Shown here piece by piece: positions 1 to 44,522 of a DNA stretch of 64,000 nucleotides. Position numbers and translations under genes: made by a program. The DNA is from Schmidtea polychroa (lineage: Eukaryota). A model generated the notes under the pieces. It saw only the letters and a list, made by a program, of their open reading frames with translations, searched no databases and was not told the origin of the DNA. How positions within the stretch are numbered: position 1 is the stretch's first letter; every line of letters begins with the position of its first letter. The stretch is from positions 100,316,001 through 100,380,000 of the forward strand of contig CM097886.1 in the NCBI GenBank assembly GCA_044892525.1, given 5' to 3'.

Positions 1-545
1 CCCCTCAACAGTTTTTTTGATCCGGATCATTTCAACCTCTTTCGTTTATCAAATCTCTTCTAATATACAAGCTGGCCAGACTCATACATCAGAATCAATC
101 CGATAAAAGCAGCACACCTTATTATTCGCTTCTCGCTCGAATACGATTTCATCGGCGTTTTAAGCGTGCTGCTCGAAAGTACAAATGAATTCGAAAGTGA
201 ATCCGAAAGAGGTCCGAAAACAACTGAGAAATAAATGTGCACATTAAAGAATCGATCCGGGGGTGTTCGAAAGACAGGTGGCGATAATTACCGGTTCGCC
301 ACCATCACCCTTTTCAATAATTTTTTTTTCATATTTATGTTTAAAAATAAAATAATTAATAAAATAAATAAAATAAAATAAAATAAAATAAAAATAAATA
401 AAATAAAATATAAATCTAAGATACCCACACTATTATTTTCAAATTTTTAAAAAAAAAAAAACTAACCACAGTTAGGATTTGAACCGCTATCCATTTGAAC
501 CACGGTGCCGGTCTAGCCCACTGCGCTATCTAGGTTTGGATTTTT
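1..545 (+). repeat. Left TIR of Polinton 1 (1-14 plus 286-545, interrupted by a 271-bp insert at 15-285)
   Basis: 286-545 (AATTACCGGTTCGCCACCATCACCC...TCTAGGTTTGGATTTTT) is the reverse complement of the right TIR, with a few substitutions and a shorter TAAAA tract. Confidence 0.9.
449..535 (-). ncRNA. Putative Pol III tRNA-like small RNA cassette in left TIR
   Basis: On the minus strand: A-box TAGCGCAGTGG (528-518), B-box GGTTCAAATCC (485-475), then a T-run terminator (A-run 449-461). The cloverleaf is degenerate. Confidence 0.5.
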
Positions 546-638
546 GTTATTTTTTATACTGTCACATTATGAAAATAAATATAAAAACATCATAAAAAAT
601 AAAAAAACAAGGTATCCAATAAAAATTTTTTTCTAAAA

Positions 639-2159
639 ATGAATTGTAATATTTGTAATAAAGTTTTTAAAAATAAAACTGGATTAATTTCTCACTTAAA
701 ATCGAAAGCTCATTTATTAAAAGAAAACAATCTTAATGATACAAATTCAAAAGTTTGTCCTAAATGTAAAGGAAGATTTCTACATTCTGGATATAATAAA
801 CATTTTGAAAATTGTATCGGGAAAAATAGAGAAATATTTACATGTTCTCACTGTAACTTTTCAACAAAAGTAAATTTCTATTATTTAGAACATATAAAAG
901 AATGTAAAAATAAAAAACAAAATTCTGACGATGAGGAATGTCATTCAGAAGGAGAACCTGATCATGTTGAAAGAGAAAAATATAACTGGGATGATTTTAA
1001 TCATGTAGATGAATTTCAATTAGAAATCAATGGACCTATAACTCCTGGAGAATATATAAATAAAAATAAAAAAAATATTAAAAATTCTTTCACTGAAGCT
1101 TTAAAAAATTATAAACCGACAAGGTATAATGTTATAAAATATAAAATTATAATCAAAGCAAAATACTGGCGAGGAGCAGAAGAAAAGACAACACCCTTAG
1201 ATGTTGAAATTGGAATACCTTTTAAATATTTATTTTCAACTAAAGGATTTGATAAAACCATCAAAGAAATAATTCAAGCAGTAGAAGCAAAACAAGAAGA
1301 GGTTGAAAATGAATTAGGAGATTCAAACTTAGTATTCAACTCTTTCCAAACTTTAGTGATTGATTATTGGAGAGGATTACCACCTAATCCTAAATCTTAT
1401 ATTCCTACACCCTTTAAATCTAAAAATGTTATAAACATACAGAATAATGATAACAAATGTTTCATCTGGTCAATACTTGCACATTTACACCCTCAAGAAT
1501 CAAACCCTCAAAGAGTTTCAAAATACAAACAATATGAAAATGAATTAATATTTCCCAAAGGATTCAAACATCCAATGAAACTAGAAGACATTCCAAAATT
1601 TGAAAGTTTAAATAATCTTAAAATTAATATTTATGAACGTGTTAAAGGGAAACATGTTAATAGCAGAGAAATTATTCCAATTTATATTTCAGATTATGAA
1701 GTTAGAGATAATGAACCCCAGGATAACACTAGGGAGATATATCTTTTAATCTTGGAACAACAAAATAATCAACATTATGTTTTAATAAAAAACTTTCAAG
1801 CTTTTACATCACCAGAGAATCCAACTAGTGGAGGAGGAACATGTAAAAGATGTCTTCATTATTCAACAACTAAAAACTCTATGATTAAACATACAAGATT
1901 TTGTGAAAAAGATGATCCAGCTTTAATTAAAATGCCTAATAATCCCAAGATGTATTTTAAAAACTTTTCAAATTTACTACAAACAGTAGGAGTGCTTTAT
2001 GGGGACTTTGAATCTATAAATCGTAAACAAGATTTGGTTAAACAATATTTAAAAATAATAGAAAAAAATAAACTCATGGATTCCTGGAACTCCTCAGGAG
2101 AGAAGATGAAACGGAATAATCCTATTACACACTGTTTAATTAAAAACAAACTGTTTTAA
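639..2159 (+). pseudogene. polB: pPolB N-terminal part (zinc fingers, OTU-like protease region, Exo I); native sequence ends at the Merlin insertion (2112)
   Basis: CxxC..H zinc fingers; NNDNKCFIWSILAHL and HYVLIKNF motifs; Exo I YGDFES. The last ~15 codons come from the Merlin TIR. Confidence 0.88.
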
Positions 2160-3305
2160 TTAAAATACACTGTTTAAATATTTAACCAAATTATTTATTT
2201 AAAATAAAAATGCCGCGAATCCAAAATATAACAAAACTTACGGAATTAATATACAACGATGAAGAGCTAATTGCAACCAGATTTAAATCCGACAGTCTTT
2301 ATGATGACTTGAAAAAATCCAAACTTGAAGTATTAGAATTTGTGGCTAGCTTAGGACTTATTAAAAATACCATGGATTGTGAAATGTGCAATACACACAT
2401 GAAGTTAGTAAAAGCGAAAAGGCTAGTTGATGGTTATGTGTGGAGCTGCACACTCCCATGCCGAAAATCAACTTCTGTGCGATTCGACTCAATATTTTTC
2501 GATAGCAAGTTACCGCTAAAAGATTTGTTGATGACTATATTTTTTTGGTCAAAAAATCAACAACAAGATGAAATTTCTAATGATTTGACTTTAAATAAAA
2601 ATACATTGGTCGAAAAATGTAAAGATCTTCGTGAATTGTGTGCGATGGGTTTGGAGGGATTTAACGATGTATTGGGGGGTATTGATGCGGACGGAAATCC
2701 AATCGAGGTTGAGATTGACGAGTCATGTTTTTCGAAAAGGAAATATAATAGAGGCCGTCTAACAAACAGTAAGTGGGTTTTCGGCGCTTATGAAAGGGGT
2801 ACTAAGAAGTGTTTTTTGGTAATAGTGCCTAATAGGAATGCTGATACTCTATTAAGAATAATAAATACGCGTATTCTGCCAGGAACAAGAGTAATAAGCG
2901 ATGGATGGGCGGCTTATCGTCGTATAATTGAAAGCGGGCTTTTTACGCACGACGTTGTCATACATGCGGACAACTTTGTTTCACCAACAGATACAAGCGT
3001 TCATACGCAAAATATCGAATCAACATGGGCTCATGCTAAAAGAAAATTACGAAACCAATACGGATCGAAAAAATTATATTTAGCGGGTTATTTAAGTGAG
3101 TTTTTGTTTCGTCGGAAGTGTGATAAGTTTAAGGTCTTCAATGAGATTCTGCTGGTCATCCGGAAATGGTGGTAAATTATATTTAGGTTATTACTTGTGT
3201 ATTATAATTTATAATTTGTATTATAATTTGCAATAAATATTAAAACAGTTTGTTTTAAATAAAACAGTTTGTTTTTAATTAAACAGTTTATAATATGATT
3301 ATGCC
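2113..3305 (+). mobile_element. Merlin (IS1016/ISXO2-like) DNA transposon inserted in pPolB
   Basis: Imperfect ~45-bp TIRs (GGAATAATCCTATTACACACTGTTTAATTAAAAAC versus reverse complement GGCATAATCATATTATAAACTGTTTAATTAAAAAC). Perfect 8-bp TSD GATGAAAC at 2105-2112 and 3306-3313. Confidence 0.95.
2210..3175 (+). CDS. Merlin/ISXO2-like DDE transposase, intact (321 aa)
   Basis: N-terminal zinc ribbon CEMC...WSCTLPC; catalytic motifs VEIDES, VISDGWAAY and HTQNIESTW. Confidence 0.95.
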   Translation: MPRIQNITKLTELIYNDEELIATRFKSDSLYDDLKKSKLEVLEFVASLGLIKNTMDCEMCNTHMKLVKAKRLVDGYVWSCTLPCRKSTSVRFDSIFFDSKLPLKDLLMTIFFWSKNQQQDEISNDLTLNKNTLVEKCKDLRELCAMGLEGFNDVLGGIDADGNPIEVEIDESCFSKRKYNRGRLTNSKWVFGAYERGTKKCFLVIVPNRNADTLLRIINTRILPGTRVISDGWAAYRRIIESGLFTHDVVIHADNFVSPTDTSVHTQNIESTWAHAKRKLRNQYGSKKLYLAGYLSEFLFRRKCDKFKVFNEILLVIRKWW

Positions 3306-5373
3306 GATGAAACCAGAGAGGATGAAAGCCTTTCTAAGAAAAAGGAATAAACCTAATAGTGTTAAAAAAACTAAACAATTACCATCTGCTTATAAATTAT
3401 TATTTAAAAGTAATTATCCTGAACTCATAGAATCTAGAGAATATACATTTCGAGGAATTTCAGAAACAGAAGTCTTGAATCATTTTACTAAAAGTATAAA
3501 TGATCTAGAACATGAAATATTTAAAGTATTAAAAACAAACTATCCTCAAAATATTTCTAATCAACAACAACAAGAATATGAAAACACTTCCAACTGTTGG
3601 ATGTGTAAAAAACCATTTGAAGAGTCTCCGAATATAAAAGTCCTCGATCATGATCATTTAAAAAAGGAAAATAATTATCGAGGAGCAGCTCATAAAAATT
3701 GTAATCTTAATTGTCATACTCCTAAATTTGTACCTGTTATATTTCATAATCTTTTTGGTTATGACATACATCTATTTATTAAACATTTAGCAGCAAATGC
3801 TAAAAACTCTTTCAAAGTTATAGGACTTACAAAGGAAAAATATAAATCAGTTGAATATGGAAAATTAAAATTTATAGACTCGTTAAACTTTCTTCAAATG
3901 TCTCTAGATGGAATAGCTAAAACAATGAAACCAGAAGATTTTAAAATCACTCGAGAATTCTTGGAAAAAAATAATATTCCTCTAGAAGAATATCCTACAT
4001 GTTTAGCAAAAGGAATATATCCTTATGACTATGTTGACTCGTTTGAAAGATATAATGAAACAAGTCTTCCTAGCCAAGAAGATTTCTATTCACAACTTCA
4101 AAAAAATCATATTACAAATCAAGAATATTCTCGAGCAAATAAAATGTGGGAATTATTCAAGTGTAAAACTTTAGGAGAATATACAAGTATGTATTTATCC
4201 TTGGATGTTTATATTCTAGCAGATTGCTTTGAAGAATTTACAAAATCTTTTGTTCTTAAACCTTACAATTATATAACAGCACCCTCTTTAGCTTGGGATA
4301 CTTTATTATATACCATTTGGACTTCAAATATAGAAGAAGCTGATAAAATTATAGATCTTTTAACTAACCTCGATATGTTTAATCTAATTAAAACAAACAT
4401 TAGAGGAGGAGTCTCTTCAGTAATGGGGAATAGAGAAATAAAAGCTAGAAATGCAATAACTACTAGCAGAATGCTTTCAAAGACCTCTGATCCATATATA
4501 AAAATTAACAATGAGGAATTAAAAGAAATATTAGAAACAATGAAAAATCCTATATTTATACTTTATATAGATGCAACAGCTTTATATTCAGGAATTATGA
4601 CTCAATATTTACCAATGGGTGATTTCATTGAAATAGAATCATCAAAAGAACTTATAAAAGAAATACTTTCAACACCTAAAGATTCTCCAATAGGTTACTT
4701 TGTAGAATGTGACTTATTATATCCAGATGATATAAAATCAGGAACAAGATATTTCCCATTAGCTCCTGTAAGAAGAAAGATTGATATCAACGAACTTTCT
4801 GAATGGCAAATCTCACAAGATAAACCCCCAACAATGAAACTTCTTTGTGATCAAACAGATCGAAGGTTTTATCTTTGTCACTATAGACTCCTCCAATTTT
4901 ATCTTTCACGAGGTATGATATTAAAAAAAGTTCATAGTGTCATAAGATTTAAACAGAGGCCATTCATGAAAGCTTTTATCGAGGAGAACATTAGATGTCG
5001 AAACATTGCAAAAAGAGAAGGTAACCTTTTTAAAGATAATAATTATAAACTTTTAAACAATTCAGTCTTTGGGAAGACAATGGAGAATGTTGATAAATAT
5101 ACTCATATTGAACTCCTAACTAATACTGCCAAAGATATTAAGCGTTATAATCGTATGCTAGGAAAGCCTACATTTAAAAACGCACAAGTATTTTCTGAAA
5201 ATCTTACTGCAATAGAACTAAAGAATTTTGAGAAAACATACAACAAACCAATATTTATAGGATTAACAATTTTAGAACTTTACAAATGTATAAAACATAT
5301 TATAACATCTTACAACCTATATATGGTTCTAATATATCAATGCATGCAATGGATACAGATTCAATGTTTTTAA
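3295..5373 (+). pseudogene. polB: pPolB central part (HNH/EndoVII-like insert, Exo II/III, Pol motifs A and B)
   Basis: CWMC...DHDH...YRGAAHKNCNL, FHNLFGYD, KGIYPYDY, LSLDVYILAD, YIDATALY, KLLNNSVFGK. In frame with 639-2112 once Merlin is removed (EKMK-PERMK). Confidence 0.93.
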
Positions 5374-6143
5374 CAATAAGAACTCATGATTTACAAAGAG
5401 ATATAGCTGAAAATCCTATACTTTCAAATTTAATAAATTCAACTGGAGAATTATTTTCATTTAAAGATGAAAAACCTTTTACTCCTATAGAAAATGGAAT
5501 ATTTATTCGTGCTAAACAATATTCATACGAAACATTTAAAAACCCTGAATTTATAACCCGAGAAATTATATTTAAAACCCCAGAAAAAATTATTTCATTT
5601 AAATATCCTATATTCCCTAAAGGACCAGAGGGACAAGAAGAAAAACCTGTAAAGGATAACAGATGTAAAGGAATACAGAAATCCGTTGCAAAGAATCTTT
5701 CTCATCAAGATTATATAGATACATTGAATCCAAATCATAAAGATAAAATTGATGAAGTGCATCAGATTAAAAGCGAAAACCATGATATTCACTTGATAGA
5801 ATCTCAAAAAGTATCATTATCAAATTATGATGATAAGAGATTCATCCTAAGTGATTTAAAGACAACTCTTCCTATAGGAAATAATTTAATACCGATAATA
5901 AAAAATCTAGAAAAGTTGAATAAGTTATATGATACAAAAATTACTGATCTTGATATTTATAATGTTGAAATCATTTATCCCGAGAGAGAAATCGAGAAGC
6001 CTTTATATTCTCAAGTTTTTAATCCTATATGTTTAGAACTTAAATATTTTAATACTGATTCTGAATATATAAAAGGTCTAAGTGATAAAGAATTTAAAGA
6101 TCATAAATTAATGATTCATAGGTTGGCTTTCAACCATAACTGA
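5286..6143 (+). pseudogene. polB: pPolB C-terminal part (motif C), frameshifted from the central part near 5285
   Basis: MDTDSMF, IFIRAKQYSY, RCKGIQKSV, KVSLSNYDDKRFIL. Confidence 0.92.
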
Positions 6144-10546: not shown

Positions 10547-11359
10547 TTTATAATAAATAAAATGGATGTACGAAGTCCAATAATTTGGAAACCAATTTTA
10601 AATAGACATAAATCTAAATTTAATAATAAAGTATTTCCTGATAATTTTAGATTATTAATTGTTGGATCTTCTGGATGTGGAAAGAATGTACTTGTTTTGA
10701 AAATGTTGCTTGAAGATGATTTTTTAGATTATAATAATTTAATCTTTTATTCTACAACTATAAACCAACCAGAATTACAACTTTTGAAATGTGGATTTGA
10801 AAATAAATTAACTAAAAAAGCAATAATTGATATTTTTAAAAATCAACATAGATGTCCTGAAGAAGTTTTTCACCCTTGTGATATGGTTGATTGGTATAAG
10901 GAAATGATTTTAGAATCAGATATTAGTAATAAAAATGATTACATCTGTGAAGAGGCGATTCAAGTTTTATTCTCTAATAAACCTGAAGATGTTTTACATT
11001 GTGATTTACTTCCTAAAGATAAAAAGAATCTAGTTATATTTGATGATGTTGTCAACATGAAAAATCAAGAGATCCAAAAGAGTTACTTTACAAGAAGAAG
11101 ACATAATAATTGTAATGTTATTTATATATCTCAAACTTATTATGCTTTAGATAAAAACTCTATAAGAAATAATTCTAATTGTTTTATATTTTTTAAATTA
11201 GATCGCCGTGATAAGAATATGATTTATAATGATTTATTTTCAAATGTTGAACCTGATAAGAATATGTTTGATATGTTTGTTGATAATCATTGGAGAGAAA
11301 AATATAATTATATTTATTTGGATAGAGAAGAAGCTGAAATATGGAAAAGTTTGTTTTAG
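10508..11359 (+). CDS. A32/FtsK-like packaging ATPase (probable start Met at 10562)
   Basis: Walker A GSSGCGKN, Walker B LVIFDD, TRRRHNNCNVIYISQ (RGRH in element 2), IRNNSN. Confidence 0.92.
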   Translation: MQRFFSRGTLRGHFIINKMDVRSPIIWKPILNRHKSKFNNKVFPDNFRLLIVGSSGCGKNVLVLKMLLEDDFLDYNNLIFYSTTINQPELQLLKCGFENKLTKKAIIDIFKNQHRCPEEVFHPCDMVDWYKEMILESDISNKNDYICEEAIQVLFSNKPEDVLHCDLLPKDKKNLVIFDDVVNMKNQEIQKSYFTRRRHNNCNVIYISQTYYALDKNSIRNNSNCFIFFKLDRRDKNMIYNDLFSNVEPDKNMFDMFVDNHWREKYNYIYLDREEAEIWKSLF

Positions 11360-12294
11360 AAATCTGTTTTCTGTAACTCATTATTATAAAATCTACCTAA
11401 TATTTTTTCATTATTTAAATCAATGATGCTATATGTTATTGGAGTTGTATAATTTATTTTATTTATAATAAAAATTTCATTTGTCCATTTTGCTGTGAAT
11501 CCTTTTTCAAATTTATTTTTATATTTAAATATTCTTACTCGGTCACCAATTTTAAACTTTGGTTTTTCAATAACATCATTTTCAATATTTACCACTTTAA
11601 TGGTTTCAGGATTTATGGAAGCATTTAAAGGTGTTGATTTTATAGAACTATGTACATCATTATTATATTCATTTACAATCTTTTGTAACAATTCATTGTT
11701 CCATTTTTGTTTTCCAATAGCCGTAAAATATTTCCACATTTTATTTTTTAATGTTCTATTTAATCTTTCAACCACAACTGCTTTTCCTTCGTTTTCTGTT
11801 GAATATAATTTAATATCATTTTCATTTAAAAACTTTGTAAAAACTTTGTTATAAAATTCTGTTCCTTTATCACTCCATAAATATTTTGGAATTCTTTGAT
11901 GTTCTTCAAATATATTTTCAAATGCTTCTGTAATGGAATATCCTGTTTTATTTTCTAAACATCTTGCAAAGGCAAATCTTGTATATAAATCTATTACAGT
12001 TAAAATTATTTTATATTTTTCAGGGTCTGATGATTTGGTTGGCATAAAGACTAAATCTGCAGACCATGTTTGATCTTTTTCATGTACTTGAACTTTTAAA
12101 TATTTTTTATTTTTTCTAAATTCATGGTGTAATTCGTTGGCATATTTTATTTGTGATTCTGTTGGGGTTAATAAACTAGTCTTGGATATATTCTCGAGGG
12201 ATCTTTCAGCATCTGCTTGTTCAATAATCTTTTTATTAGCAACATTTTTTGCCATCCTTGGTAAACTAGCACCTATGAAAATCTTACCTTTCAT
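11356..12294 (-). CDS. int: Polinton retroviral-like (rve) integrase
   Basis: DDE triad in WSADLVFM, WSDKGTEF and VVERLNRTLK; C-terminal KFKIGDRVRI...FEKGFTAKWT. Confidence 0.95.
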   Translation of the reverse strand: MKGKIFIGASLPRMAKNVANKKIIEQADAERSLENISKTSLLTPTESQIKYANELHHEFRKNKKYLKVQVHEKDQTWSADLVFMPTKSSDPEKYKIILTVIDLYTRFAFARCLENKTGYSITEAFENIFEEHQRIPKYLWSDKGTEFYNKVFTKFLNENDIKLYSTENEGKAVVVERLNRTLKNKMWKYFTAIGKQKWNNELLQKIVNEYNNDVHSSIKSTPLNASINPETIKVVNIENDVIEKPKFKIGDRVRIFKYKNKFEKGFTAKWTNEIFIINKINYTTPITYSIIDLNNEKILGRFYNNELQKTDF

Positions 12295-12555
12295 TGCTAA
12301 TTTAACTAGAGCTCTTTGAATCTTTTCTTGGGTTGATGGATTTTGGATACTATTTAAATCATGTATTAAATTAACATCTGCAACATGTCTATTTTATTAG
12401 CAACATCTTTTGCTTTCCTAGGAGGAAGTCCTAAGCCTATGAAAATCTTACCTTTCATTGCTAATTTAACTAGAGCTCTTTGAATCTTTTCTTGGGTTGA
12501 TGGATTTTGGATACTATTTAAATCATGTATTAAATTCACATCTGCAACATGTCTA
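12233..12555. repeat. ~160-bp tandem duplication separating PLA2 from integrase
   Basis: TTATTAGCAACAT recurs at 12234 and 12394. About 120 bp are near-identical and a ~30-bp segment differs. Confidence 0.85.
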
Positions 12556-12899
12556 TCTCTAAGATCTTCTGAATTGTAAGCAATATCATGTTTTAAAGCT
12601 GCTTGGTCGATTCTATTTATTGGTTCTTCTCCTTGTTTGGGATTATTATTTTCATCTAATCTAATATCTAATCTTGTTCCTGGTCCGGTATAGTTGTGTT
12701 TAAATAAATGTCTTTCACCTGGATATTTTTCTGTAGTAAAAGGTTTTAATATTGAAGATGTCACTTTTGAAGATTGTAGGTCGCCTCCGGCTCGTGGAAT
12801 CATGTCGCCTCCTATATGTTTTTTAGTTTTTAGATGACTTGCTTTATGATGTCTTGTAACTTGACAATTACAACTTTCACATCTCCAATAGAGAGACAT
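12366..12899 (-). CDS. Zinc finger plus parvovirus-type phospholipase A2 (PLA2X-like); probably once fused to integrase
   Basis: HNYTGPGT Ca-binding loop, INRIDQAALKHDIAY catalytic HD; N-terminal CESC...HLKTKKH. Confidence 0.9.
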   Translation of the reverse strand: MSLYWRCESCNCQVTRHHKASHLKTKKHIGGDMIPRAGGDLQSSKVTSSILKPFTTEKYPGERHLFKHNYTGPGTRLDIRLDENNNPKQGEEPINRIDQAALKHDIAYNSEDLRDRHVADVNLIHDLNSIQNPSTQEKIQRALVKLAMKGKIFIGLGLPPRKAKDVANKIDMLQMLI

Positions 12900-12916: not shown

Positions 12917-14146
12917 TTAAGAATCTCCCCTAACATTTTCAATAATTGAAATCTTTCCACCATATAATTTCATTTCTATTTTCTTTTCTTCTAATATTAA
13001 TGTATATACTTTAGCTTTGAAATTAGAATCCTTTGTTACATGAAGTGTAACATCAACATTATTTATGGCTAGGCGATCATCTTGGTCTGAAACATTTATA
13101 CAAAATATAGAATATAAATTTTTGAAATCTTCTAAACTTAATTGCGGTTCAACTTTGAAATCATAACATGTTTCAATATAATTTAGATATGGGAATATGT
13201 TTTCATTATTTTCAATATTAAATTCCATTCTATTTATTGGATAATAAGAACTATTTAATTGAATTTGGATTGTTTTTAAATTATCAACTCCAATCTTTTG
13301 AATAAACAAGTTGTTATTTTTTTGGAAAGATGAATCTACTTCTTTGAATCCAATCAAGATATATCTTGGTCGGTATGCTAAATTTGCTACCTTTATAGAA
13401 TATGTTGAACCCTCTGTCATACTAAATTCACTACAGATTCTATTTAAATAATTTACATTTATAGACTTGTTGGAATTTAATCTTTCTAGGAGTTTGATTT
13501 CAGAATGTGGATTTAATGTCCATTCAGGTATATGCAATTCAAGTGTTGATAATTTTAATTTAGCTTTTGTATCTACAGCTCCATAGAGCAATCTTTTATC
13601 ATCTTCTACTCTATTACAGATGAATTCTATAAAAACATTATGAAGTATACGATTATAGTTTTGAAGGAATTCAAACAAGTGTTTTAATTCAAAATAACGT
13701 TCAAATTTTTTAGATTTATAAAGTTCAGCTCTTTTATAATAACCATGGTTTACATCTAAACCATCTTTATCTAAATCCCCTTTATTAGTGTCAGGAATCC
13801 AGCCTGTTAATTCACCATATTCGTTTTTATAATCACAACCAGTTAAAATAAAATTTAGCATTGTAGAATATACTCCCGGATGTAAAACAGTTTCAATTTC
13901 TGATGATCCTAGTTTTAATCTCATGTTGGAGAATAAATTTGGAAAGAAATTATTTTCTATGGTTATATCTTTGTTTGCTTCAATTTCTAATTCGATTTTA
14001 TAATATAATTTGGCATTACAAATATCTATAGGGTTTGATGTTTGAAGAGATTGAAAAACTATATCACCCCTACGATTTAAGTTTGCAATGGATCCTGAAG
14101 TTGGGGAGATTTTAAGTACATCGTTTTTCTTGATTTCATGGGTTCA
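12917..14146 (-). pseudogene. Major capsid protein (double jelly-roll type), 5' end disrupted
   Basis: The frame stays open upstream of the track ORF (KISPTSGSIANLNRRGDIVF...ENNFFPNLFSNMRLKLG). Also RPRYILIGF, IQLNSSYYP and LYSIFCINVSDQ. No in-frame ATG before the stop near 14147. Confidence 0.8.
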
Positions 14147-14326
14147 AATCCCATTTCGGTCATTTTTTTTCAAATTATTTTTAACGAAATATTGATCAGC
14201 ATACTCGATTTAGTACTTGTACAAATTTTTAAGGTGATTAGTCAACGGCAACTCTTGGAAATTTAAGATCAAAAACGTTTTAACTACCAAAAATTAATAT
14301 ATCCAATAAAAAAAATATTTATAAAA

Positions 14327-14596
14327 ATGGATGAGTTAAAAGAAAGAATAAGAAATGAATTGAATGAAGTTAAACATAAGAGAATGAAAAGAAGAGAAGA
14401 AGAACCATTAGAATACATCAAAGAGTTGATGGTAGATAATGAAAAGTATCGACATTTTTACATGAAAGCTGTAGAAGTTGCTGAGATAAGATTGAAGAAA
14501 ATGAAACAATTACAGGAAAGAGTTAAAGAACTTGAATCGATTATTTATAGTCTAAAAAATGAGAAAAATCCAAACCTAGATAGCGCAGTGGGCTAG
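14327..14596 (+). CDS. Small coiled-coil ORF of Polinton 1, unknown function
   Basis: 89-aa charged helical ORF with ATG in an AAAAATG context like the other element genes; ends inside the TIR. Confidence 0.45.
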   Translation: MDELKERIRNELNEVKHKRMKRREEEPLEYIKELMVDNEKYRHFYMKAVEVAEIRLKKMKQLQERVKELESIIYSLKNEKNPNLDSAVG

Positions 14597-14864
14597 ACTG
14601 GCACAGTGGTTCAAATGGATAGCGGTTCAAATCCTAACTGTGGTTAGTTTTTTTTTTTTAAAAATTTGAAAATAATAGTGTGGGTATCTTAGATTTATAT
14701 TTTATTTTATTTATTTTTATTTTATTTTATTTTATTTTATTTATTTTATTTATTTTATTTATTTTATTAATTATTTTATTTTTAAACATAAATATGAAAA
14801 AAAAATTATTGAAACGGGTGATGGTGGCGAACCGGTAATTAATTAAACTGTTGAGGGGACAGTG
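14565..14864 (-). repeat. Right TIR of Polinton 1
   Basis: Reverse complement of 1-14 plus 286-545; terminus CACTGTCCCCTC when read inward. Confidence 0.92.
14574..14659 (+). ncRNA. Putative Pol III tRNA-like small RNA cassette in right TIR
   Basis: A-box TAGCGCAGTGG 14581-14591, B-box GGTTCAAATCC 14624-14634, T12 terminator 14648-14659. Confidence 0.5.
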
Positions 14865-15150
14865 AAAAAAAAAAAAAAAAATACCACTGTCCCCTCATAG
14901 CAGTTTTACTATTTTTCATTTATTTTTTAATTTATATAATTTAAAATCAATAATCTGATAAAGATCAACTACGGAGTTTGATTGATCCCAAATAGCCCTC
15001 TAACCTTTTCATAATGCCATTTTCTTTTCTATTCTCTTTTTAGTTTGAAGCTTTTGAGTTTGAGGCTTTAAAGATTAAGCGTGGTTGTTGTTTAAAATAT
15101 GGGGTTAAAATACTATAAAAGCATAGGTTTTATGTTGTTTTTCTAATGGT

Positions 15151-15982
15151 TTAAGCGTAATGGAGGTATGTTTTTGTTGGGAGGGCTGTTTGGGTTAGGG
15201 CTATATACACACTACTTCTGCATCTCATCCCTTTTTCTATCCAAATAAATATAATTGTATTTTTTTTCCAATGATTAGCAACAAACACATCAAACATGTA
15301 CTTGTCAGGTTCAACATTTGAAAATAAATCACTATAAATCATATTCTTGTCACGCTTATCTAATTTAAAAAAGATGAAACAATTGGAGTTGTTTCTAATT
15401 GAATTTTTATCCAAGGCATAATAAGTTTGAGAGATGTAAATCACATTACAATTATTATGACGTCCTCGAGTAAAATAACTCTTTTGAATTTCTTGATTTT
15501 TCATATTTACAACATCATCAAATATAACTAGATTCTTTACATATTTGGAAAGAAAATCACAATGTACTACATCTTCGAGTTTTTTGAAAAATAAAACTTG
15601 TATTGATTCATCACTAATATAATCATTTTTATTAACAAGGTTTGATTCTAAAATATTTTCCTTATACCATTCAACCATATCACATGGATGATATACTTCT
15701 TTAGGACATCTGTATTGATTTTTAAAAATATCAATGATTGCTTTTTTAGTTAATTTATTTTCAAATCCACATTTCAAAAGTTGTAATTCTGGTTGGTTTA
15801 TAGTTGTAGAATAAAATATTAAATTATTATAATCTAAAAACCCTCCTCGAGTAACATTCTCAAAAGAAGTACATTCTTTCCACAACCCGAAGATCCAACA
15901 ATTAATAATCTAAATTATCAGGAAAAATTTTATGATTAAATTTACTTTTGTGTCGTGTTAAAATTGGATTCCAATTATCCAT
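15151..15982 (-). pseudogene. Packaging ATPase of element 2, frameshifted
   Basis: VGSSGCGKNVLL in a shifted frame, LVIFDD, TRGRHNNCNVIYISQ; highly similar to 10562-11359. Confidence 0.9.
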
Positions 15983-16034
15983 TTTATTTATAAAATTGCC
16001 AATTTTTGGAATTTTTATAATTTTTATTTATAAA

Positions 16035-16570
16035 ATGACGACTAAAGAATCTCAATTTAAATTAACCAATCCAACGGAAGAATCTCTAAAAGAATTAATC
16101 AATTCAAACAAAAATAAATCAGTAGTAATTGATGGCAAGAAATATTTTGTTACAAAAGACATCAAGGAGAAAGTTCAAGAGAAAATTAGTCAAGGTGGTA
16201 TTTTACCTTTGGCTGCTTTAATACCAGTAATCATTGCAGGTTTATCTGGTGCTGCTGGAATAGCTGAAGGAATTGCAACTACAGTTCAAAAATCTAAAGA
16301 CGCTCAAAAAACCGAATTAGAAAAACAAAAATTACAAAATGAAATTGATTCAATTCAAAAAAAGAAAGGAACATATACCTTAATCCTTACAAAGGTAGAG
16401 GTTTAAATGATTTTCTCAAAAATCAAGTTTCATCATCTGATTTATCCTCATAAGAAAAGGATAAATTAAAACAAGTGTGCAATTCTTTGAAAAATGGTTG
16501 TATTTGTAAATCGAAAGATGGACAAGGTTTATATTTGAATCCTTTTTTCAATCATAAACTTGAAACATAA
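16035..16570 (+). pseudogene. pX-like core protein of element 2, frameshifted
   Basis: GGILPLAALIPVIIAGLSGAAGIA; homolog of 9941-10546. Confidence 0.75.
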
Positions 16571-16637
16571 AATGGTACATACCATAAGATGGTATATAAA
16601 ATGGTTTTATTCATATACCATTTTTATAGTATATAAA

Positions 16638-17461
16638 ATGGTTAAGGAAGAAAGATTAGCTTTGTTAAAAAAATTATATGTTGAACAAAACAAGTATAAT
16701 AAAAAAGATTTGGCTCAACATAGTGAATCTATAATATTAAATGAATTAATGACAGAACAACAACAACCAATTCTTGATGCTTTGAAAGAATTAAAACCCA
16801 AAGAATTAGAATCTGGACATTTAAAACCCAAAGAATTAGAATCCGGAGATTTAGAAGAATTGAAGCAATTAGAGCAATTGAAATCTTAGGATTTGGAACC
16901 TGAAGATTTAGAAATAAATTCAAAACCATACAAAGTTGATACAACAATTAATAATAATTTACCTGCAACAATTAAACCAACTTCTATATTGATAAAGGAT
17001 ATCAAATTATAAGAATTAATAATCAAAGATTTGTATTGTATGAAAATAATAATGGTGAACCATATATTCATTCTGAAAATAGTTTCAACAGTCAACGTAT
17101 AAATATAGAATACACACAAGATTTGGATAAATTAATTAAAGGATATTCTTCAGATGATAAAAATGAAATTAAAAAATATTTAGGTTTAATAAAATTAGTG
17201 GGAGGTAGTCCTAAAGCAAAATATATAAAGAGCTTAAAAGATTGTTGTACTGTCAAAGAAGGAAAAGGAATGGGTTTTGTAACAAAACAGGATTCTATTA
17301 AAGGAAAGGATTTTATTAATCTTTTTATACAACTAAGAAAATTATTAGCAATAAAGAAAGCAGGTCATAATAATTTGAATGGTGATATTTTAAACATGTC
17401 TAAAAAATTATTAAAACATGGAATAATTTCACAAGATAAATTTAATAAATATACTCGTTAA
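16638..17461 (+). pseudogene. Conserved Polinton protein of element 2, with internal stops
   Basis: MVKEERLALLKKL...LRKLLAIKKAGHNNLNGDI; homolog of 9073-9918. Confidence 0.75.
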
Positions 17462-17527
17462 TAAATGATTATATTTAATAAATATACACTTTAAGTTTTA
17501 AAAATTTTCCAAAATTTTAAAAACAAA

Positions 17528-17979
17528 ATGAGCGAGTATTCAATATTGGATTTTTTAAAAACATTTGGAATTGATACAAAAACAAATTTTGATTTAAAAG
17601 ACTATGCAAATTATTTAAATTTACCAATTAAAATTTTGATGAATGATGAATTGCACAAGATTGGAAAAACTAAGAAAAATAATATAATAATCAATTATCA
17701 AAACTTGGATAAAAAGGATCTCATTGGGTTGGAGTTTATAATAAAACTCTATATTTTGATTCATATGGAATTAAACCTACAAAAGAAGTTGAAGAATATT
17801 TGAGACAAGAATACACTTGGAATACTCTACAGGTTCAACCTGACAACACTAAAATATGTGGAGTTTTGTGTTTATATGTTTTGTATAAATTAAATGTTGT
17901 TGATATAACGCTCATAAAACAAGAGTTTACAAATATAATCCAAGAAATCTATAATAATCTGGAAACTTTGTTATAATAA
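17528..17979 (+). pseudogene. Adenain-like protease of element 2, frameshifted
   Basis: GGATCTCATTGGGTT (GSHWV), YFDSYG, QVQPDNTKICGVL. Confidence 0.85.
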
Positions 17980-17995
17980 AATTTTACTAATAGAA

Positions 17996-18781
17996 ATGGA
18001 GTCAAGTTTGAAAAAAATGGAGAATATAATGTCTACAAAATATTCCATAACTTTATCAGTTAATTCCACCAATTCTAATTTTACTATATATTTTGAAAAC
18101 CCTATAAATTTAAAATCTGATTTAAATTATGAATTGGGCTTATTATGGTTTAGTTGTTACAACACAATTTTCAATATAAATAACAACAATAATAATTTAA
18201 TAATTTTAATAATTCACCACAAAAAAAGAAACAGGGCAAGAAAAAAATGTAACAATTGAACCAGGAGCATATGAATTAAAAGAATTAAATGCAATCGTTT
18301 AAAAAGAAACAAATGGAAATGTTGAAATCAAAATAGATTTACCAACTTCAAAATGTATATTGATGATAAAGAATATTCAAATTACTTTTGATTCTGCTAG
18401 TTTCTTTCATAATATTTTAGGTTTTGAAGTAAAGACATATGGATTATTTGAAGCAGGTGTACCTATAGAATTTAGAAAATCAAAACAAGAAACATCTAAA
18501 GAAATTATAAAAATAATAAATACAACTTCAATAAATATAGAGTGTGATTGTATTTCTGGTTCATATTGTAATGGACAAGAAACAAAAATCTTGTATTCTT
18601 TTCCCTCAAATACTGTAGGAATGGGATATAAAATTATTGAAAGAATGAACCCTCAAATTATTTACCCTTGTGTAGAAAATATTTAAGTAGTATTACTTTT
18701 AAAATTGTTGGTAGTGATGGTAAATTAATTGATTTTAATGGTGAAGAGATCTCAATGTATTTACATTTGAAAGAAGTCTAG
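17996..18781 (+). pseudogene. Minor capsid (penton-like) protein of element 2
   Basis: YELGLLWFSCYNTIFNI; INIECDCISGSYCNG..TKILYSFP; IDFNGEEISMYLHLK. Confidence 0.8.
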
Positions 18782-18828
18782 AGGTCTAAAAAAAGTTTGG
18801 AAAAATAAACAAGTTTAGACTATTAAAA

Positions 18829-19717
18829 ATGAGTTTTTATAATCCTTGTAATAAAACTGGTGGTACAATTGAAGGTGGATTGGATGTTGAACAAGTATTA
18901 TCTATTACAGAAAATAAATATATTAATGAAAAAGGTGATGGTATGAAGGGTGATTTAGACATGAATGGACACAAGATAAAAGAATTATCTTGGATAATTA
19001 ATGAAGGTGATGCAGTTAATAAAAAAACTGATGAAGGCGATGTAGTTGTTAAAAAATATATTGATTTAACAACAACAAGAATTGAAAGTTCATTAACAAC
19101 AAAATTTGATTCAACGGGAACTACGGTTAATGCCTTGATAGAATCCAAAGTTAATTCCTTGATGGAATCCAAGCTTAATAATATCGAACAGCGATTTAAT
19201 GATAAATTTAACAGATTACAAAGTCAGTTAACAGAACAAGTTGTAAAGTTAAATGCTGCCATATTAAATTCTACAGATAAAAAAATTATGGATACTAAAT
19301 CTAATGCAATATATAACACAATAAATGAGATAATTAGATCATTTAATAAAAGACTTTCAAATTTAGAGTCTCACTCAACACATATTAACCCTAGACACAT
19401 CATTAGAAAAGGGCTGCTGAATTACAAGAGAATCATGGAGCATTACCTGATACATATAAATATATAAATATATAACATACCCAATTTCAATAACAACAAA
19501 TAGTAAAGAATGGCCTGGTTTTATGATTGTAAAGATTATTGATCCATATTTCTTTTTATTTACTAATTTTAATAGTTCACTCGTACATTATATAGATTTA
19601 ATATTTTATGATGCTAACGAGGTTCGTAAAGCGTTGTCTGAGTTGTATAAAGATGTGCTCACATCAAGACCATGTGATATACGAGTGTTGATACCACACA
19701 GTAAAGTCTTGATTTAA
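18829..19717 (+). pseudogene. Fibre-like protein of element 2, frameshifted
   Basis: GDGMKGDLDMNGHKIKE; homolog of 6846-7823. Confidence 0.7.
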
Positions 19718-19763
19718 ATCTTGTTTTATTAATAAAAGTTTTTATATTATTAAAAGATATAAA

Positions 19764-20332
19764 ATGGAGGAGGTCAAAGAAGATAAAATTTATCCAGAAT
19801 TGAAATTTTTAAATCAAAATAAACATCCACCAGAACCTTCTGAATTAGAAGTTCTAAGAGTAAAAGAATTCAAATCTGAAAAATTTCATTTAGAAGATTT
19901 ATTAAAACATTATAAAAAAATTAAACATAAATGGAATAGAGCTGTTGGTTGTTCTTAAGGTCTTGCAACAACAATATTAACAATTATATTACCTGCAACT
20001 TTACCAGTACTAACACTTGTACCAATAATTCATGGGAGTATTTTAGTAGGAGATTTATTCTTGACTGAAGTTGTGTCTATATCATACACTTCAAAAAAGA
20101 AAAGTTTATATCGTGAAGTATGTTCAACAATAGATATTGGAACTGCAAAATTATTTTTATTTCAATTAAAAGCCATGGAAGATGGAGTCTTGACGAATGA
20201 TGAAATTTAAAATCCAATCAAATAATTCAAGAGATAAAAGATCAAGTTAACAAGTTAAAAAATGCAAATGTAATAACCCAAGGATATTCAAAATAAGATG
20301 CACGAGAGAAATGGTTAAAGAATGCTTTATAA
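19764..20332 (+). pseudogene. Membrane protein (GasderminX-like) of element 2, disrupted
   Basis: MEEVKEDKIYPEL...KHYKKIK..W; homolog of 6238-6837. Confidence 0.7.
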
Positions 20333-21500
20333 TTGAAGAAAATTGAAAAATTAAAATATAAAATGGGAGAAAATAAAATTGATGATTTTTTAAATAAAAT
20401 GAACAAAGTAAGTTTGGTTGATACTGATAAATTAAATTTATTTTTATTAAAAGATAAAGTTGTGCAATTCACAAAAATTAAAAGTGAAAATCCTAGCCTA
20501 AGACAACCTCAAATTTGTAAAAATGACTGGTACTTCATCTTCGACTAGGGGAAGAATACGAAATGATTTAGAAATGCCTTTACCTTATAGACATAAAGTT
20601 AGAGCAAAGAGACCTAGAAAATCAAGGGGAATTATAAATAGTAATAATACATTGAATAATCCAAGTAATAATATAAGGAAAATTAAATTAATTAATACTA
20701 TTCCTGGTAAAACATCTTTATGTAATCATTGTACTCGATATTTTAAATTCTGGTTTGGATAACATCAAGAATAATATTAAAGAGAAGTTAAAGAATCCTG
20801 GTAAACTTGGTATTCCTGAGAGTTTTTATTCTCCACCTAATAAAGTAAATGAAGGAATTGAAGAAGAAGAAGAAGAAGAAGATGGAAATATTGAAGAAAA
20901 GATTGATGTAGAATATTTGAAAAAACTATTAAAAAATAAAAAAAAACTATAAAAAATGGAAACAAATGTTATGGATTTGATAATTAATAATTCAACTGTT
21001 CAACAAGAAACAATAAAAAAAAACTTGTAGCCATCAATTGTGAGCAGGGACAATTACTTACAATATTCTATGATGAACTTATTGATAATAGTGAAACTAT
21101 TGATGTTTTAATAACTGAGAATAGTTTATTAAAACAAAAAGTGACGGAGATTGATAAAGAATTTAACAGAAATTTTAACAGAATTAAACAGAATTTAACA
21201 GAATTTATGCAGAAATTTGAAATTATACCAAAAATTAAGTTGACAAATGAAAGAAGTTATAGTGTTTTGAGAAAAAATATACAAAGCAAAATAGACTCAA
21301 TAAACAAACTAATATGAATATTATCTAGTTTCTCCAGAATCTTCTATTCTTTAATTATTTTTCTCAAATAATCCTTTCTTGGCATTTGATAAGGCATTTA
21401 TAATTGCATCTTCAGCATAATTCAATGATTGACATTTTAAATATTAAAAAATAAAGTTTTCATTATTTAATCCAAAAAAATTTATCACATGTATCATTAT

Positions 21501-22287
21501 ATTTATTTGGATTTAATTGGATTTAATTGGATTTAATTGGATTTATTTGGATTTAATTGGATTTAATTGGATTTAATTGGATTTATTTGGATTTAATTGG
21601 ATTTATTTGGATTTAATTGGATTTAATTGGATTTATTTGGATTTATTTGGATTTATTTGGATTTAATTGGATTTAATTGAATTTATTTGGATTTAATTGG
21701 ATTTAATTGGATTTATTTGGATTTAATTGGATTTATTTGGATTTAATTGGATTTAATTGGATTTATTTGGATTTAATTGGATTTATTTGGATTTAATTGG
21801 ATTTAATTGGATTTAATTGGATTTATTTGGATTTAATTGGATTTAATTGGATTTATTTGGATTTAATTGGATTTATTTGGATTTAATTGGATTTATTTGG
21901 ATTTAATTGGATTTAATTGAATTTATTTGGATTTAATTGGATTTAATTGGATTTAATTGGATTTAATTGGATTTAATTGAATTTATTTGGATTTAATTGG
22001 ATTTAATTGGATTTAATTGGATTTAATTGGATTTAATTGGATTTATTTGGATTTAATTGGATTTAATTGGATTTAATTGGATTTAATTGGATTTAATTGG
22101 ATTTAATTGGATTTAATTGGATTTAATTGGATTTAATTGGATTTAATTGGATTTAATTGGATTTAATTGGATTTAATTGGATTTAATTGGATTTAATTGG
22201 ATTTAATTGGATTTAATTGGATTTAATTGGATTTAATTGGATTTAATTGGATTTAATTGGATTTAATTGGATTTAATTGGATTTAAT
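21501..22287. repeat. 10-bp satellite (GGATTTAATT / GGATTTATTT), roughly 78 units
   Basis: Direct reading: the two variants are interspersed on the left, and the array is homogeneous on the right. Confidence 0.97.
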
Positions 22288-22427
22288 TTTATATACATTG
22301 GATTTCATCATGATGAAATATGATGGAATATCTTGGAATATCTTGGAATCTAATCTAATCTACTTGAAAAGAATTAAATAATATGGAATCTACCGGAATC
22401 TAATCAGAATCAGCTGGATCAGAAACA

Positions 22428-24914
22428 TTATTGAGAATTATTATTATCTGAATCATAATCATCATAATCATCTTCTTCATTATCAAGATTATCAAGATTA
22501 TCAAGATTATCAAGATTAGCATCAACGGAATTAATATTTTCATAGTAGGAATTATTATAAACAATCCAATCATCAGAATCATTTTCAGGATTATCAAATT
22601 CCAAATCACTTTCAATGGATTCTGGATTATTAGGATTAGGATTATTAATATTGGGATTATTATTAGAATTCTTTAATTCTGATTCTTGGATAAATTCTTG
22701 GATAAATTCTTGGATAAAATCTTGATATTCTTCAGGTGACATTTTAATAACATCAACATCTGTATAATTTGTTGCTAATGTTTTGTTAATTTTTCTCAAC
22801 TTGTTTATAATAGGAATCCTATCATTTCCAAATGTAAGTGTATAAATTCCATCTGAAGAAATCCATCTTTTTGTATCATTATTATCTAGAGAAACTTTTT
22901 GTGATTCTTGTACAAATATTGCATGTTTTTTAATATAATTTGATGAATTGTTACTATTTGTTTTTTTAGAATCTAATCCTAAACAAATTAGATAATCTTG
23001 AAATGTAATATTTCTAGTAACACATCTTTGAATTCCTTTATTTCTTTTTTCTTCAATCATATTAACAACCTCATTATAAATCCTAGCCATTAAAAGAGCA
23101 TATTGTAAATCTATAGTAAATAGTAAATAGTAAATCCCAAGATAGAGATGGTGAAGTTATATAATTATAAGGTTTTAAAGGAAAATGTTTAAAGGAAAAT
23201 GTTTTTACAAACTTTTCAAAACAATCTGCGAGAATTTAAACATCGAGACTTAGATATACATCAGTATAATCTCCCATGGTTTGACAATTAAATAATTGCC
23301 ATATTTTTCTAGTTCGAGCATGTTCTTGTTCAGTTATCTTTGACTGGGATAGGATTGAATAAAACTTTTCATGTATTGGTAATTCTATTTCTTGATATCT
23401 ATCAAATGAATCAATATAATCATATGGATATATTCCTTTTGCTAAACATGTAGCATATTCTTCAATTGGAATATTATATTTTTGTAAAACATGTTGTATT
23501 GTATATTTAAAATCATTCTCTCCAGAGATTTCATTTGGCATTGTTTTCATTGTTTTTGATATTGCATTTAAACTCATTGCAAAGAAATTTAGAGAATCTA
23601 TAAATCTTAGACAACCATATTCTATGCATTTATATATTTCTTTTGTTAAAGCAGTAACTTTAAATGCATCTGTTGCATTAATTGCCAAATGTTTTATGAA
23701 TAGATGAATATCATATCCAAATAAATTATGAAGCAAGACTGGTATGAATTTTAGTTTTCTACAATTTAAGTTACAATCTTTATGAGCTGCCCCTTGGTAA
23801 TTATTTGTTGATTTAAAATGATAATGATCTATAACTTTTGGATTATTAATATTTTCATAACCTTGTAATGATTGTTTACAAATCCAACAAATTGTAGAAT
23901 TTGTATATTCTGTATATTGTTCTGGTGAAATTTTCATTTCAAAATCAATTTCTATTTTTTTCTTGAGAACATCTTTTATAGAATTGAAATCTTGAACAAA
24001 ATGATTTAAAGTATCCTCTGCTGAAATTCCTCGATATGATAATTCTTGAGAATCAAAAATTTCTGGATAATTAATATTGCCCATTGAAAACATTTATTAT
24101 CTTTATTTTGAACATTTATTATATATTTTGAGTTTTTTAAAAAATTTGGTGTGGGAATCCAAGATTTTGGAACTGGGGGATTTCCTTTCCAATAATCTAT
24201 TTCTATATTTTCAAAAGATTGGAAAAGTAAATTTGATTCTCCTAATTCTTGTTCAGATTGTTCTTGACTTTCTTGAAATTCTATTATAATTTCTTTGAGT
24301 GTTTTTTATAATACTTTCATTGAATACAAATATCTATATGGAATTTGAATTTTAAATTCTAGAAAATTTGGATCTATATTTGGTTCAACATTTCGATCAA
24401 TATCTCTCCCATATTTTGCTTTTATGGAAATTTTATATTTTATAATATTTTACCTTGGTCCTTTGAATTTTTTTATAGCTTTTTCCATTGATTCTTTATT
24501 TGATCTTGATTTTTTTTAATATATGAAGAAATTGATGTTGCTCCAGTTTCCAAATCCACAATTTCATCTGTATGATTAAATTCATCCCATTCATGATCCC
24601 ATCTTAATCTTGACATTTTTGAGCATGTTCTTTTAATTCTAATTTGCTTTCAAATCTTTCATGACATTTAAAACATGGAAATGTTTCTCTAATTTTTTGA
24701 ATTCCAATACAATTTATAAAATGTTTTTCATACCCAATAAATATCTTTGTTGACATTTTGGACAAACTTTGGAATTATTATCATTTAATAAATTTGCCTT
24801 TTTTAAATGTAATTTTGATTTTTTATGAGATATTAATGCTGTTCTCGATTTGAAATATTTATTACAAATATTACAAAATAAATCTTGAGAACCCAAATTT
24901 CTTAAAGTTGCCAT
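22428..24914 (-). pseudogene. polB: pPolB of element 2 with two large internal deletions (polymerase motifs A-C absent)
   Basis: Zinc fingers, NKCFQWAIL joined directly to INYPE, HNH-like CWIC..DHYH..GAAH, KGIYPYDY, YLSLDV, then a jump to the C-terminal KGIQRCV...QKVSLDNNDTKR. Confidence 0.88.
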
Positions 24915-44035: not shown

Positions 44036-44522
44036 GAGTTTCTTTGTAAACTAGTTCATATGGTTGTGGAGTACATTTCATGAACAGTTCACCGTCAAGA
44101 CCATTTCTCGTTGCCCAATTCCATTTACATTGTACGATCATGAAACCAAGACCACCTAGTCAAAATACTGCAACAACTGCAAAATAACAATACACACAAA
44201 TTTCTAGTTATCTGAAACTCGTAGAAATCGATTTGACTGGAGAAGTAAATAATGAAATTAAACATCATGAAAATCCCAAGCATCTAACTTCGATGCTTGA
44301 GGCTCCCATGATAGGTTATCATGACCGCCTGCAGCGCTGGCGTAACCAGCGGATATGATAATTTTGGGTATATTAAATGCCTAGAGTTAGTGGTGAATCA
44401 AATATATGGGGAAAATAAGAATAGAATAAAATACAAAACAAAAAAAATATATTTTCTCATTAAAACAGAGTATTACATATTGGTGGTATCATTATAATTA
44501 TTATGGGAAAATAAAATAAAAT

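Follow-up and report, generated by a model that had tools for sequence, protein, structure and literature searches.

What is a cassette of the type transcribed by RNA polymerase III (Pol III) doing in both terminal inverted repeats (TIRs) of a Polinton? Polintons are relatives of adenoviruses, whose abundant VA RNAs inhibit dsRNA sensors or Dicer, and a sequence-only reading of a 64,000-nt stretch of Schmidtea polychroa DNA (the window) had noticed such a cassette and proposed that it gives a VA-RNA-like noncoding RNA or acts as a terminal insulator. Here, we find that this cassette, unit A, is a real feature of the sequence with a predicted function, and that Pol III units, already known from the terminal repeats of viruses and mobile elements, occur here in a Polinton.

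The window element is a Polinton/Maverick with a virion module of the alpha-adintovirus type, identified with Pfam by its protein-primed type B DNA polymerase (pPolB), rve integrase, ATPase, double jelly-roll capsid protein and PLA2 protein. Its ends and genes are as follows.

1..560, no strand: left TIR, inner part; its outer 355 nt, up to the AGTAGT terminus, precede the window
639..2159, plus strand: ORF1, C2H2 zinc fingers; ATG ∼110 nt from the A box of unit A, back to back with it
3295..6143, plus strand: pPolB, split over two ORFs in the window copy; PF03175 on the first ORF
10562..11359, plus strand: A32-like packaging ATPase (PF04665)
11356..12294, minus strand: rve integrase (PF00665)
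12366..12899, minus strand: PLA2-domain virion protein (PF08398)
12917..13924, minus strand: double jelly-roll major capsid protein (PF21738); 5' end missing in the window copy
14327..14593, plus strand: small ORF X, 88 aa; enters unit A, with its stop just past the A box in the window copy
14549..15216, no strand: right TIR; internal deletion after 14841, ACTACT end, then the target site duplication (TSD) TCTGCA at 15217-15222

Both ends of the element were located, with AGTAGT/ACTACT termini and the 6-bp TSD on each side. AGT-repeat ends and a 6-bp TSD are a Polinton/Maverick feature, and the window element has both. The earlier identification of a Polinton with two TIRs stands, while its extent is corrected to a start 355 nt before the window and an end at 15216. 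Because the TIR is ∼915 bp long in an element of 15.6 kb, unit A lies at the inner edge of the TIR, ∼25 bp from its inner limit and ∼890 bp from the terminus. PMC8502044 describes PLA2 as characteristic of Alpha virion modules. No Pfam match to an adenain-like maturation protease was found among 13 scanned ORFs of the window element, nor did any of them match TBP, a component of TFIIIB. The window copy is damaged, i.e., in addition to the split polymerase, it has a transposon at 2112-3306 and deletions at 14138/14143 and after 14841. This transposon is of the ISXO2/Merlin type (PF12762, short TIRs) and is missing from loci L134, L138 and L141-L143. Both TIRs contain a perfect 12-bp inverted repeat flanking a long A/T run (14853-14895 and about −25..8), located just inside the terminal segment and not present in the sister elements described below. 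In addition, each TIR has an inverted copy of its terminal AGTAGT motif that brackets the outer 220-300 bp (L225-L232; L136, L137, L140), and this bracketing occurs in cassette-bearing and cassette-less families alike.

The two copies of unit A are the following.

449..535, minus strand: unit A, left TIR; predicted +1 at ∼535, A box 528-518, B-like repeat 501-491, B box 485-475, T13 461-449; facing outward
14574..14659, plus strand: unit A, right TIR; A box TAGCGCAGTGG at 14581-14591, B box GGTTCAAATCC at 14624-14634, T12 14648-14659; facing outward

Thus, the arrangement that had been described, i.e., an A box, a B box 43 nt on (start to start), and a T-run, facing outward in both TIRs, is borne out. 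An inner B-like repeat lies 16 nt upstream of the B box in both copies (14608-14618 on the right, where there is also an extra A-like 11-mer at 14599-14609). With A and B boxes at tRNA spacing followed by a T-run, unit A has the make-up of a type-2 Pol III unit; for recognition, we used the A- and B-box consensus motifs. The strict A-box/B-box/T-run pattern has 2 matches in the window compared to 0 in 100 dinucleotide-model resamples, and a pattern of this kind has 2,093 forward matches across the genome compared to 0 for the reversed control. A proper cloverleaf is lacking, as had also been noted: ARAGORN finds zero tRNAs in the window, and the Rfam tRNA model has no match in 1-1000 (E≤10), which rules out unit A as a functional tRNA gene. 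A role as promoter of the element's own genes is excluded because unit A faces outward and terminates at once. Unit A is likely a worn-down tRNA-type promoter that recruits Pol III, and its RNA is predicted to be short and unfolded.

The genome-wide distribution of unit A speaks to the objection that it is a tRNA-derived SINE. Genome-wide, there are 3,219 unit-A heads (1,153 when only heads with a two-base gap are counted), and in 2,929 of these an exact TIR 10-mer follows 78-108 nt downstream. The best-matching 30 unit-A loci, the window included, all lie in Polinton ends; of 28 loci examined from position-ordered pattern matches, 27 align to Polinton ends and one (L038) is rDNA spacer without unit A. 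Hence, no dispersed solo unit A was present among these 30 + 28 aligned loci. Because 2,929/3,219 heads are followed by TIR sequence, unit A is TIR-bound, and a SINE is rejected on this linkage, with the proviso that strongly diverged solo copies are invisible to exact patterns. These findings uphold the reading that both TIRs of the family carry unit A as a fixed type-2 Pol III cassette and that it is not a SINE; the VA-RNA-like product that was read into it fares worse, as described below. In some TIRs, unit A is tandemly duplicated with periods of 377 and 232 nt (L025, L133, L144, L145). The numbers of capsid candidates (2,937), unit-A heads (3,219) and matches to another TIR motif (2,891) suggest that the family with unit A comprises ∼1,500 elements.

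Among 51 loci selected by their capsid gene, 42 contain unit A and 30 contain two further cassettes, units C and B. Four of the nine A-less loci were fetched further for a comparison with sister elements. Three of them are Polintons that are complete, with two TIRs of 337-455 bp; they share the gene order, including ORF X, their capsids are 80-83% identical, and in these three no unit A, B or C, GC-rich stretch or hairpin was found; at the fourth, the right end is cassette-less and the left end was not found. For one sister (L166), 40 matches to the inner side of the capsid gene were scored and a single further one, at 85%, is full-length, hinting that its family is small. Absence from sister Polintons had been named beforehand as evidence against the cassette reading, and the three complete sisters provide part of that evidence: unit A is a derived feature of one family and no general Polinton trait, and it is dispensable for Polinton integration. 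Viral contigs yielded no match to the capsid protein or its alignment, and none to the unit A pattern. The 49 metagenome loci with capsid relatives (168 kb) contain 0 cassettes compared to 1, 0 and 0 in shuffles, a zero that is uninformative because these loci are mostly short and without ends; ARAGORN at a lowered threshold made 18 weak, uncontrolled calls in them.

Conservation of unit A was assessed in 37 distinct copies (48 copies, 42 loci) picked by capsid gene instead of by their boxes. Among box columns, 2/22 vary in at least two rows compared to 45/150 of the other columns (Fisher p 0.042, with copies that are not independent), and the variable box positions are A-box position 2 (A/G, tolerated by the consensus) and the final B-box base. 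The mean variant fraction is 0.037 and 0.049 in the boxes, 0.069 between them and 0.073 after the T-run, and 6/7 columns vary at positions +1..7. Thus, in the comparison of boxes with surrounding TIR that had been proposed, the boxes are the steadier, yet the rest of the TIR is conserved nearly as well, so that selection on the boxes is weakly shown. In a partly box-selected set of 96 copies, the spacing is 42-44 nt in 94 and the T-run is at least 7 nt long in 95. The middle of unit A consists of a 15-16-nt repeat of the B-box sequence in 1-3 copies, with two in 93/96.

The inventory of cassettes in the sequence-only reading was incomplete. It lacked a remnant of unit B, listed further below, and a second outward cassette in the TIR, unit E.

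20..308, minus strand: unit E, left TIR; outward type-2 cassette with A box 301-291, B box 258-249, spacing 43, and T4 at 220 and 108
45..107, minus strand: pre-miRNA-like hairpin in the body of unit E; 25-26 pairs, 7-nt loop, 8-9 G-U pairs
14818..14841, plus strand: unit E remnant, right TIR; A box 14825-14835, remainder deleted

A general type-2 pattern has exactly three matches in the window, i.e., both A units and the site at 301 (minus strand), all with 43-nt spacing; this pattern was loosened after the unit E site had been seen, and 0.017 matches to it are expected in a window and 0.00015 in a stretch of 306 nt. Unit E heads a GC-rich folded stretch, and the T4/T5 that follows lies 42-50 nt upstream of the window start. 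In the right TIR, the alignment skips from the match of window position 285 to that of position 14. On the outward strand, 325-20 has a fold z of −5.22 (0/100 shuffles) and on the opposite strand of −2.21, while the hairpin at 107-45 has z −5.26 outward versus +0.62 inward, i.e., it folds only on the outward strand. In 24 copies of unit E, the A box is kept in 24/24 (two with tolerated C/T) and the B box in 23/24, with a spacing of 43-44 nt. The 25 pairs of the hairpin are 99.8% paired over these copies; seven vary one-sided and none two-sided. For the whole structure, double changes occur in 3/75 pairs (2/500 shuffles), a control that kinship can beat and a structure that was predicted from the same alignment. 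A T4 near +89 lies between head and hairpin in 24/24 rows (shifted by indels in some), and the next T4/T5 is at ∼+350 in most; therefore, the hairpin would need read-through, and the T4 near +89 may give a short form of the RNA. Neither ARAGORN nor Rfam calls a tRNA in the unit-E head. Units A and E are in tandem and in the same sense, ∼230 nt apart, and the sister elements have neither. A transcript running on from A into E is rejected because T7-T16 plus many T4 runs intervene. Because unit E combines a second cassette with a strongly folded, strand-specific hairpin, the VA-like idea is better placed on it: its layout, a type-2 head and then a pre-miRNA-like hairpin on the same strand, matches that of the TMERs discussed below, and on these structure predictions unit E is the likelier candidate, compared with unit A, for a TMER/VA-like small-RNA gene.

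Assembled contigs cover both units but carry no weight for expression. Among four runs that we guessed to be RNA, although their RNA nature is not on record, contigs of X1, X2 and X7 cover unit A and the E stretch within L080:1990-3880; X10 has no contigs over units A/E of this interval, and the unit B bins 3014-3141 are uncovered in all four. Summed contig depth is highest over the E stretch, a measure that cannot rank parts or show strand or ends. One X7 contig spans the T-run of unit A, which shows only that longer molecules exist, RNA or DNA. Reads on units B and C could stem from rDNA.

We favor, tentatively and with somewhat less than even confidence, a model in which unit A, at the inner border of the TIR, is a cis-acting module for TFIIIC and Pol III and does not work via its short RNA, with binding, transcription and barrier function all being predictions. 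In this model, one Polinton lineage would have gained a block of ∼650 bp (unit A, an AT-rich repeat, unit E and its hairpin), which would have spread to both ends by TIR homogenisation. TFIIIC would bind the boxes and TFIIIB would be loaded, and Pol III would then produce a U-tailed RNA of ∼72-80 nt. As a barrier or nucleosome gap, the bound complex would separate flanking host chromatin from the first Pol II promoter of each end, i.e., that of ORF1 at the left and of the capsid gene or ORF X at the right. The unit-A RNA would be a short by-product, and any trans-acting small RNA would more likely come from the downstream unit E. The evidence for this model is as follows. First, the boxes are kept while the tRNA fold is lost, and spacing and T-run are stable. 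Second, the A box lies close to start codons: the ORF1 ATG is 92-106 nt from it in 14 of 96 copies, and in 6 copies a distance of 44 nt separates it from the capsid ATG (in L080, the capsid ATG is 64 nt from unit C). Third, there are precedents: in fission yeast, heterochromatin is halted by tRNA genes and by inverted repeats of B boxes (PMC2040200; PMC4502379), and Helenus retains tRNA boxes but no tRNA structure in its two LTRs (PMC10886601). The insulator that had been proposed is compatible with these data. The model is weakened by the long T-run, which is needless for a pure barrier and fits a real transcript, by the three sisters without unit A, by the similarly conserved rest of the TIR, and by captures of spacer DNA elsewhere, which can be accidental and to which we turn now.

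Doubtful, but the best surviving alternative, is that unit A is a functionless passenger, i.e., a fragment of a tRNA pseudogene that may stem from an older array in the rDNA spacer. It would have been caught in the TIR of a lineage whose expansion had other causes, and would stay intact through TIR homogenisation and youth. Part of the evidence comes from units B and C, which lie between capsid start and ORF X in intact right ends. The block containing them (L080:2802-3281) shares 91-96% identity with the intergenic spacer of the host rDNA, which was recognised by its rRNA genes. In 12/12 fetched rDNA repeats (C1:12243-13300; L234, L038, L239-L250), units D, C and two to three copies of B lie ∼240 nt apart and antisense to rRNA. 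Unit D has 697 exact matches, which among the matches listed mostly follow a ∼13-kb period. Because elements that lack the C/B block have contiguous flanks at the insertion site and unit D stays in the spacer, the simplest direction is a capture of the block from the host rDNA spacer into the Polinton, as read from the alignments. The window copy lacks ∼410 nt, in which the capsid gene would start and unit C and the 5' half of B would lie; the deletion leaves the following remnant.

14138..14285, plus strand: captured rDNA-spacer remnant; B box of unit B 14141-14151, T8 14163-14170; 144/151 nt identical to the spacer

In itself, the host rDNA intergenic spacer holds an array of degenerate tRNA-type cassettes. 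By shuffle tests, units B and C are paralogs (C-B 0/1000); C-Lys scores 1/1000 and A-C 49/1000, and A-D is not significant. Unit B is similar to host tRNA-Cys up to the anticodon (2/1000 box-fixed shuffles score as high) and more weakly to tRNA-Lys (17 of 1000 shuffles). It scores 26.7 bits on the Rfam tRNA model, under the cut-off of 29, with broken acceptor and anticodon stems and a fold z of −2.7; the unit B of the spacer is tRNA-Cys-like with a rebuilt 5-bp T-stem. Because B and C are spacer DNA, their box conservation and the T-stem of B reflect host history and are no evidence of viral function. Host tRNA genes lie in long tandem arrays (Lys-TTT with period 424, Arg-TCG 278 and Cys-GCA 281; L098, L121, L128), and the Cys tRNA pattern has 977 matches.

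Unit A was not found in 12/12 rDNA spacers, nor in the C1 spacer stretches scanned, and it has no match beyond the boxes to the three host tRNAs obtained (Lys-TTT, Arg-TCG, Cys-GCA). Nonetheless, some A variants resemble C or B beyond the boxes (11/54 each at p≤0.01; none with Cys), and an older capture of unit A from the same source is therefore possible. Of 8 dispersed unit-D copies, 2, which are longer spacer pieces of 0.7 and 1.7 kb (L253, L255), lie within polymerase-region genes of other, diverged Polintons, suggesting that such captures can be accidental. Other dispersed unit-D copies (L251, L254, L256, L257, L258) are fragments of 110-240 nt with similar 3' ends at ∼12337-12362 of the spacer. 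Polinton copies are present beside and within the rDNA array (C1:33514-60000), giving physical opportunity for spacer capture, and a diverged B-like unit lies at C1:32550-32630. The passenger explanation thus draws on the spacer identity of B and C, by which their box conservation and T-stem arose in the host, on the A variants that resemble them, on the lack of unit A in sister elements, on spacer fragments in other Polintons' genes, and on the absence of B + C from 12/42 A-bearing capsid loci and their near-complete deletion in the window copy. It is at odds with the presence, per TIR, of two distinct cassettes (A and E) with equal 43-nt spacing and the same sense, with changes in the unit-A boxes that fall at tolerated positions, with the 99.8% pairing in the E hairpin, and with the 1,390 exact matches to the Polinton-spacer junction compared to ∼1,450 right ends inferred from the 2,891 TIR-motif matches.

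The same origin would also fit a functional history that we regard as unlikely: host tRNA-like spacer DNA would have given one Polinton lineage the material for a small-RNA locus of the Pol III type in its TIRs, with unit A for boundary or loading and unit E as a TMER/VA-like gene that weakens silencing. Under this reading, and with the same reserve, the unit-E hairpin would yield a small RNA or a Dicer decoy. If true, Polintons would have their first gene of this kind, and it could account for the spread of this family to ∼1,500 elements, in contrast to its cassette-less sisters.

A trans-acting viral RNA from unit A itself, comparable to VA RNA or BocaSR, is quite improbable. The 75-nt RNA would titrate a host factor, with La, Dicer/Argonaute or a tRNA-modifying enzyme as candidates, or aid in replicating DNA at the nearby terminus. 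A full promoter with a strong terminator in ∼3,200 copies, a fairly conserved between-box region (24/32 columns without a shared variant), and a 5-bp hairpin before the U-run that is intact in most copies and has a UACG or UGCG loop in some would all suit such an RNA, as would the precedent of BocaSR, a product of Pol III that a small DNA virus encodes in its end region (PMC11194592). However, the fold is neither stable nor covarying: its z is −0.03 to +0.10 in the window copies and +0.93 in L080, the consensus fold of −6.3 kcal/mol has a double-sided change in 1/14 pairs, and no covariation was found across aligned copies. The 5-bp hairpin has zero double changes and is broken in 4/14 distinct rows and 28/96 copies. 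At ∼75 nt, the RNA is also half as long as a VA RNA (∼160 nt) and lacks a long duplex, and unit A has no match in Rfam, VA RNA included. The suggestion of a VA-RNA-like product of unit A is therefore not supported.

Least probable is that unit A is a helper for unit E, holding TFIIIC/TFIIIB and Pol III and halting upstream transcription in a single A+E small-RNA locus akin to tandem viral Pol III clusters: the two units are in tandem and the same sense, ∼230 nt apart, absent together from sisters and present in similar numbers (3,219 for A versus 2,891 for the other TIR motif), and ORF X heads toward the TIR and terminates inside unit A in the window copy, but unit A is duplicated in tandem independently of E (L025, L133) and type-2 promoters are normally self-sufficient.

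How, then, does the arrangement compare with known systems? Helenus/Cassandra (TRIMp3) resemble unit A in having tRNA-derived sequence in both terminal repeats, with A and B boxes kept and tRNA structure lost; they differ in being short non-autonomous LTR retrotransposons in which the promoter transcribes the element (PMC10886601). By contrast, the Polinton is an autonomous DNA-replicating element with an outward cassette that terminates 13 nt past the B box. The window element is itself no Helenus/TRIMp3, which are short and non-autonomous and have LTRs, a primer-binding site and a polypurine tract: it is 15.6 kb long, bears inverted repeats and encodes a polymerase and an integrase.

The MHV68 TMERs and the Pol III miRNA genes of BLV and foamy viruses are likewise clustered viral type-2 units, and those of foamy viruses lie in terminal repeats; unit E in particular resembles the TMERs in having a tRNA-type head and then a pre-miRNA-like hairpin (PMC4378190). 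Compared to TMERs, which have a cloverleaf head that RNase Z cuts and which give a mature miRNA, unit A has no hairpin cargo and no tRNA cloverleaf is called in the head of unit E, and both units are predictions from sequence. Adenovirus VA RNA I/II share the intragenic box A/box B, the U-run terminator, and a virus with protein-primed polymerase and jelly-roll capsid (PMC7589676, PMC4378190). They are ∼160 nt long, consist of apical stem, central domain and terminal stem, and have an internal genome position (PMC7589676, PMC4378190), whereas the RNA of unit A would be ∼75 nt and unstructured and its gene is located in TIRs. As ancestors of VA RNAs, tRNA genes have been proposed (PMC7589676). 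BocaSR of human bocavirus is similarly a Pol III A/B-box gene in the noncoding 3' end region of a small DNA virus; it is 140 nt long, structured, single copy and shown to aid replication (PMC11194592), while unit A is a sequence prediction.

The IR-L/IR-R B-box repeats and centromeric tRNA barriers of fission yeast are alike in placing TFIIIC sites in inverted repeats around a domain (PMC4502379; PMC2040200). These are host barriers that fence heterochromatin in, whereas the putative barrier at unit A would fence heterochromatin out of a mobile element. Finally, tRNAs and other ncRNAs have been reported in Polinton-like viruses (PMC12220804), and the tRNAs of Polinton-like and MELD viruses are alike as tRNA-related sequence in Polinton relatives; these are detectable by ARAGORN/Rfam and discussed as codon compensation (PMC12220804, PMC8502044), whereas the units of this Polinton are no tRNAs, with no ARAGORN call, and unit A lies in TIRs.

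In searches of open-access article text, we found no Pol III small-RNA gene or TIR Pol III cassette of Polintons and no text pairing "Polinton" with "VA RNA". What is new is the presence of unit E in the TIR of this family and the origin of C/B in the host rDNA spacer. Together, these may catch a possible route midway, i.e., from pseudo-tRNA units in the spacer, via a recent capture of two of them, to older TIR-fixed units, one with hairpin cargo. The sister elements without any cassette provide a natural with/without comparison for silencing escape and high copy number of Polintons.

Other repeats surround the element. It is nested in an older inverted Polinton, at the integrase/ATPase junction of the latter (15233-24876; L031:5517-7600; 64-88% identity), of which no recognisable end remains within the stretches scanned. 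A 60-bp tandem array occupies 21501-22308 of the window. Judged by its sequence, an LTR-retrotransposon-like element lies at 44519-57811, with gag/pol-like ORFs between direct repeats of ∼800 bp.
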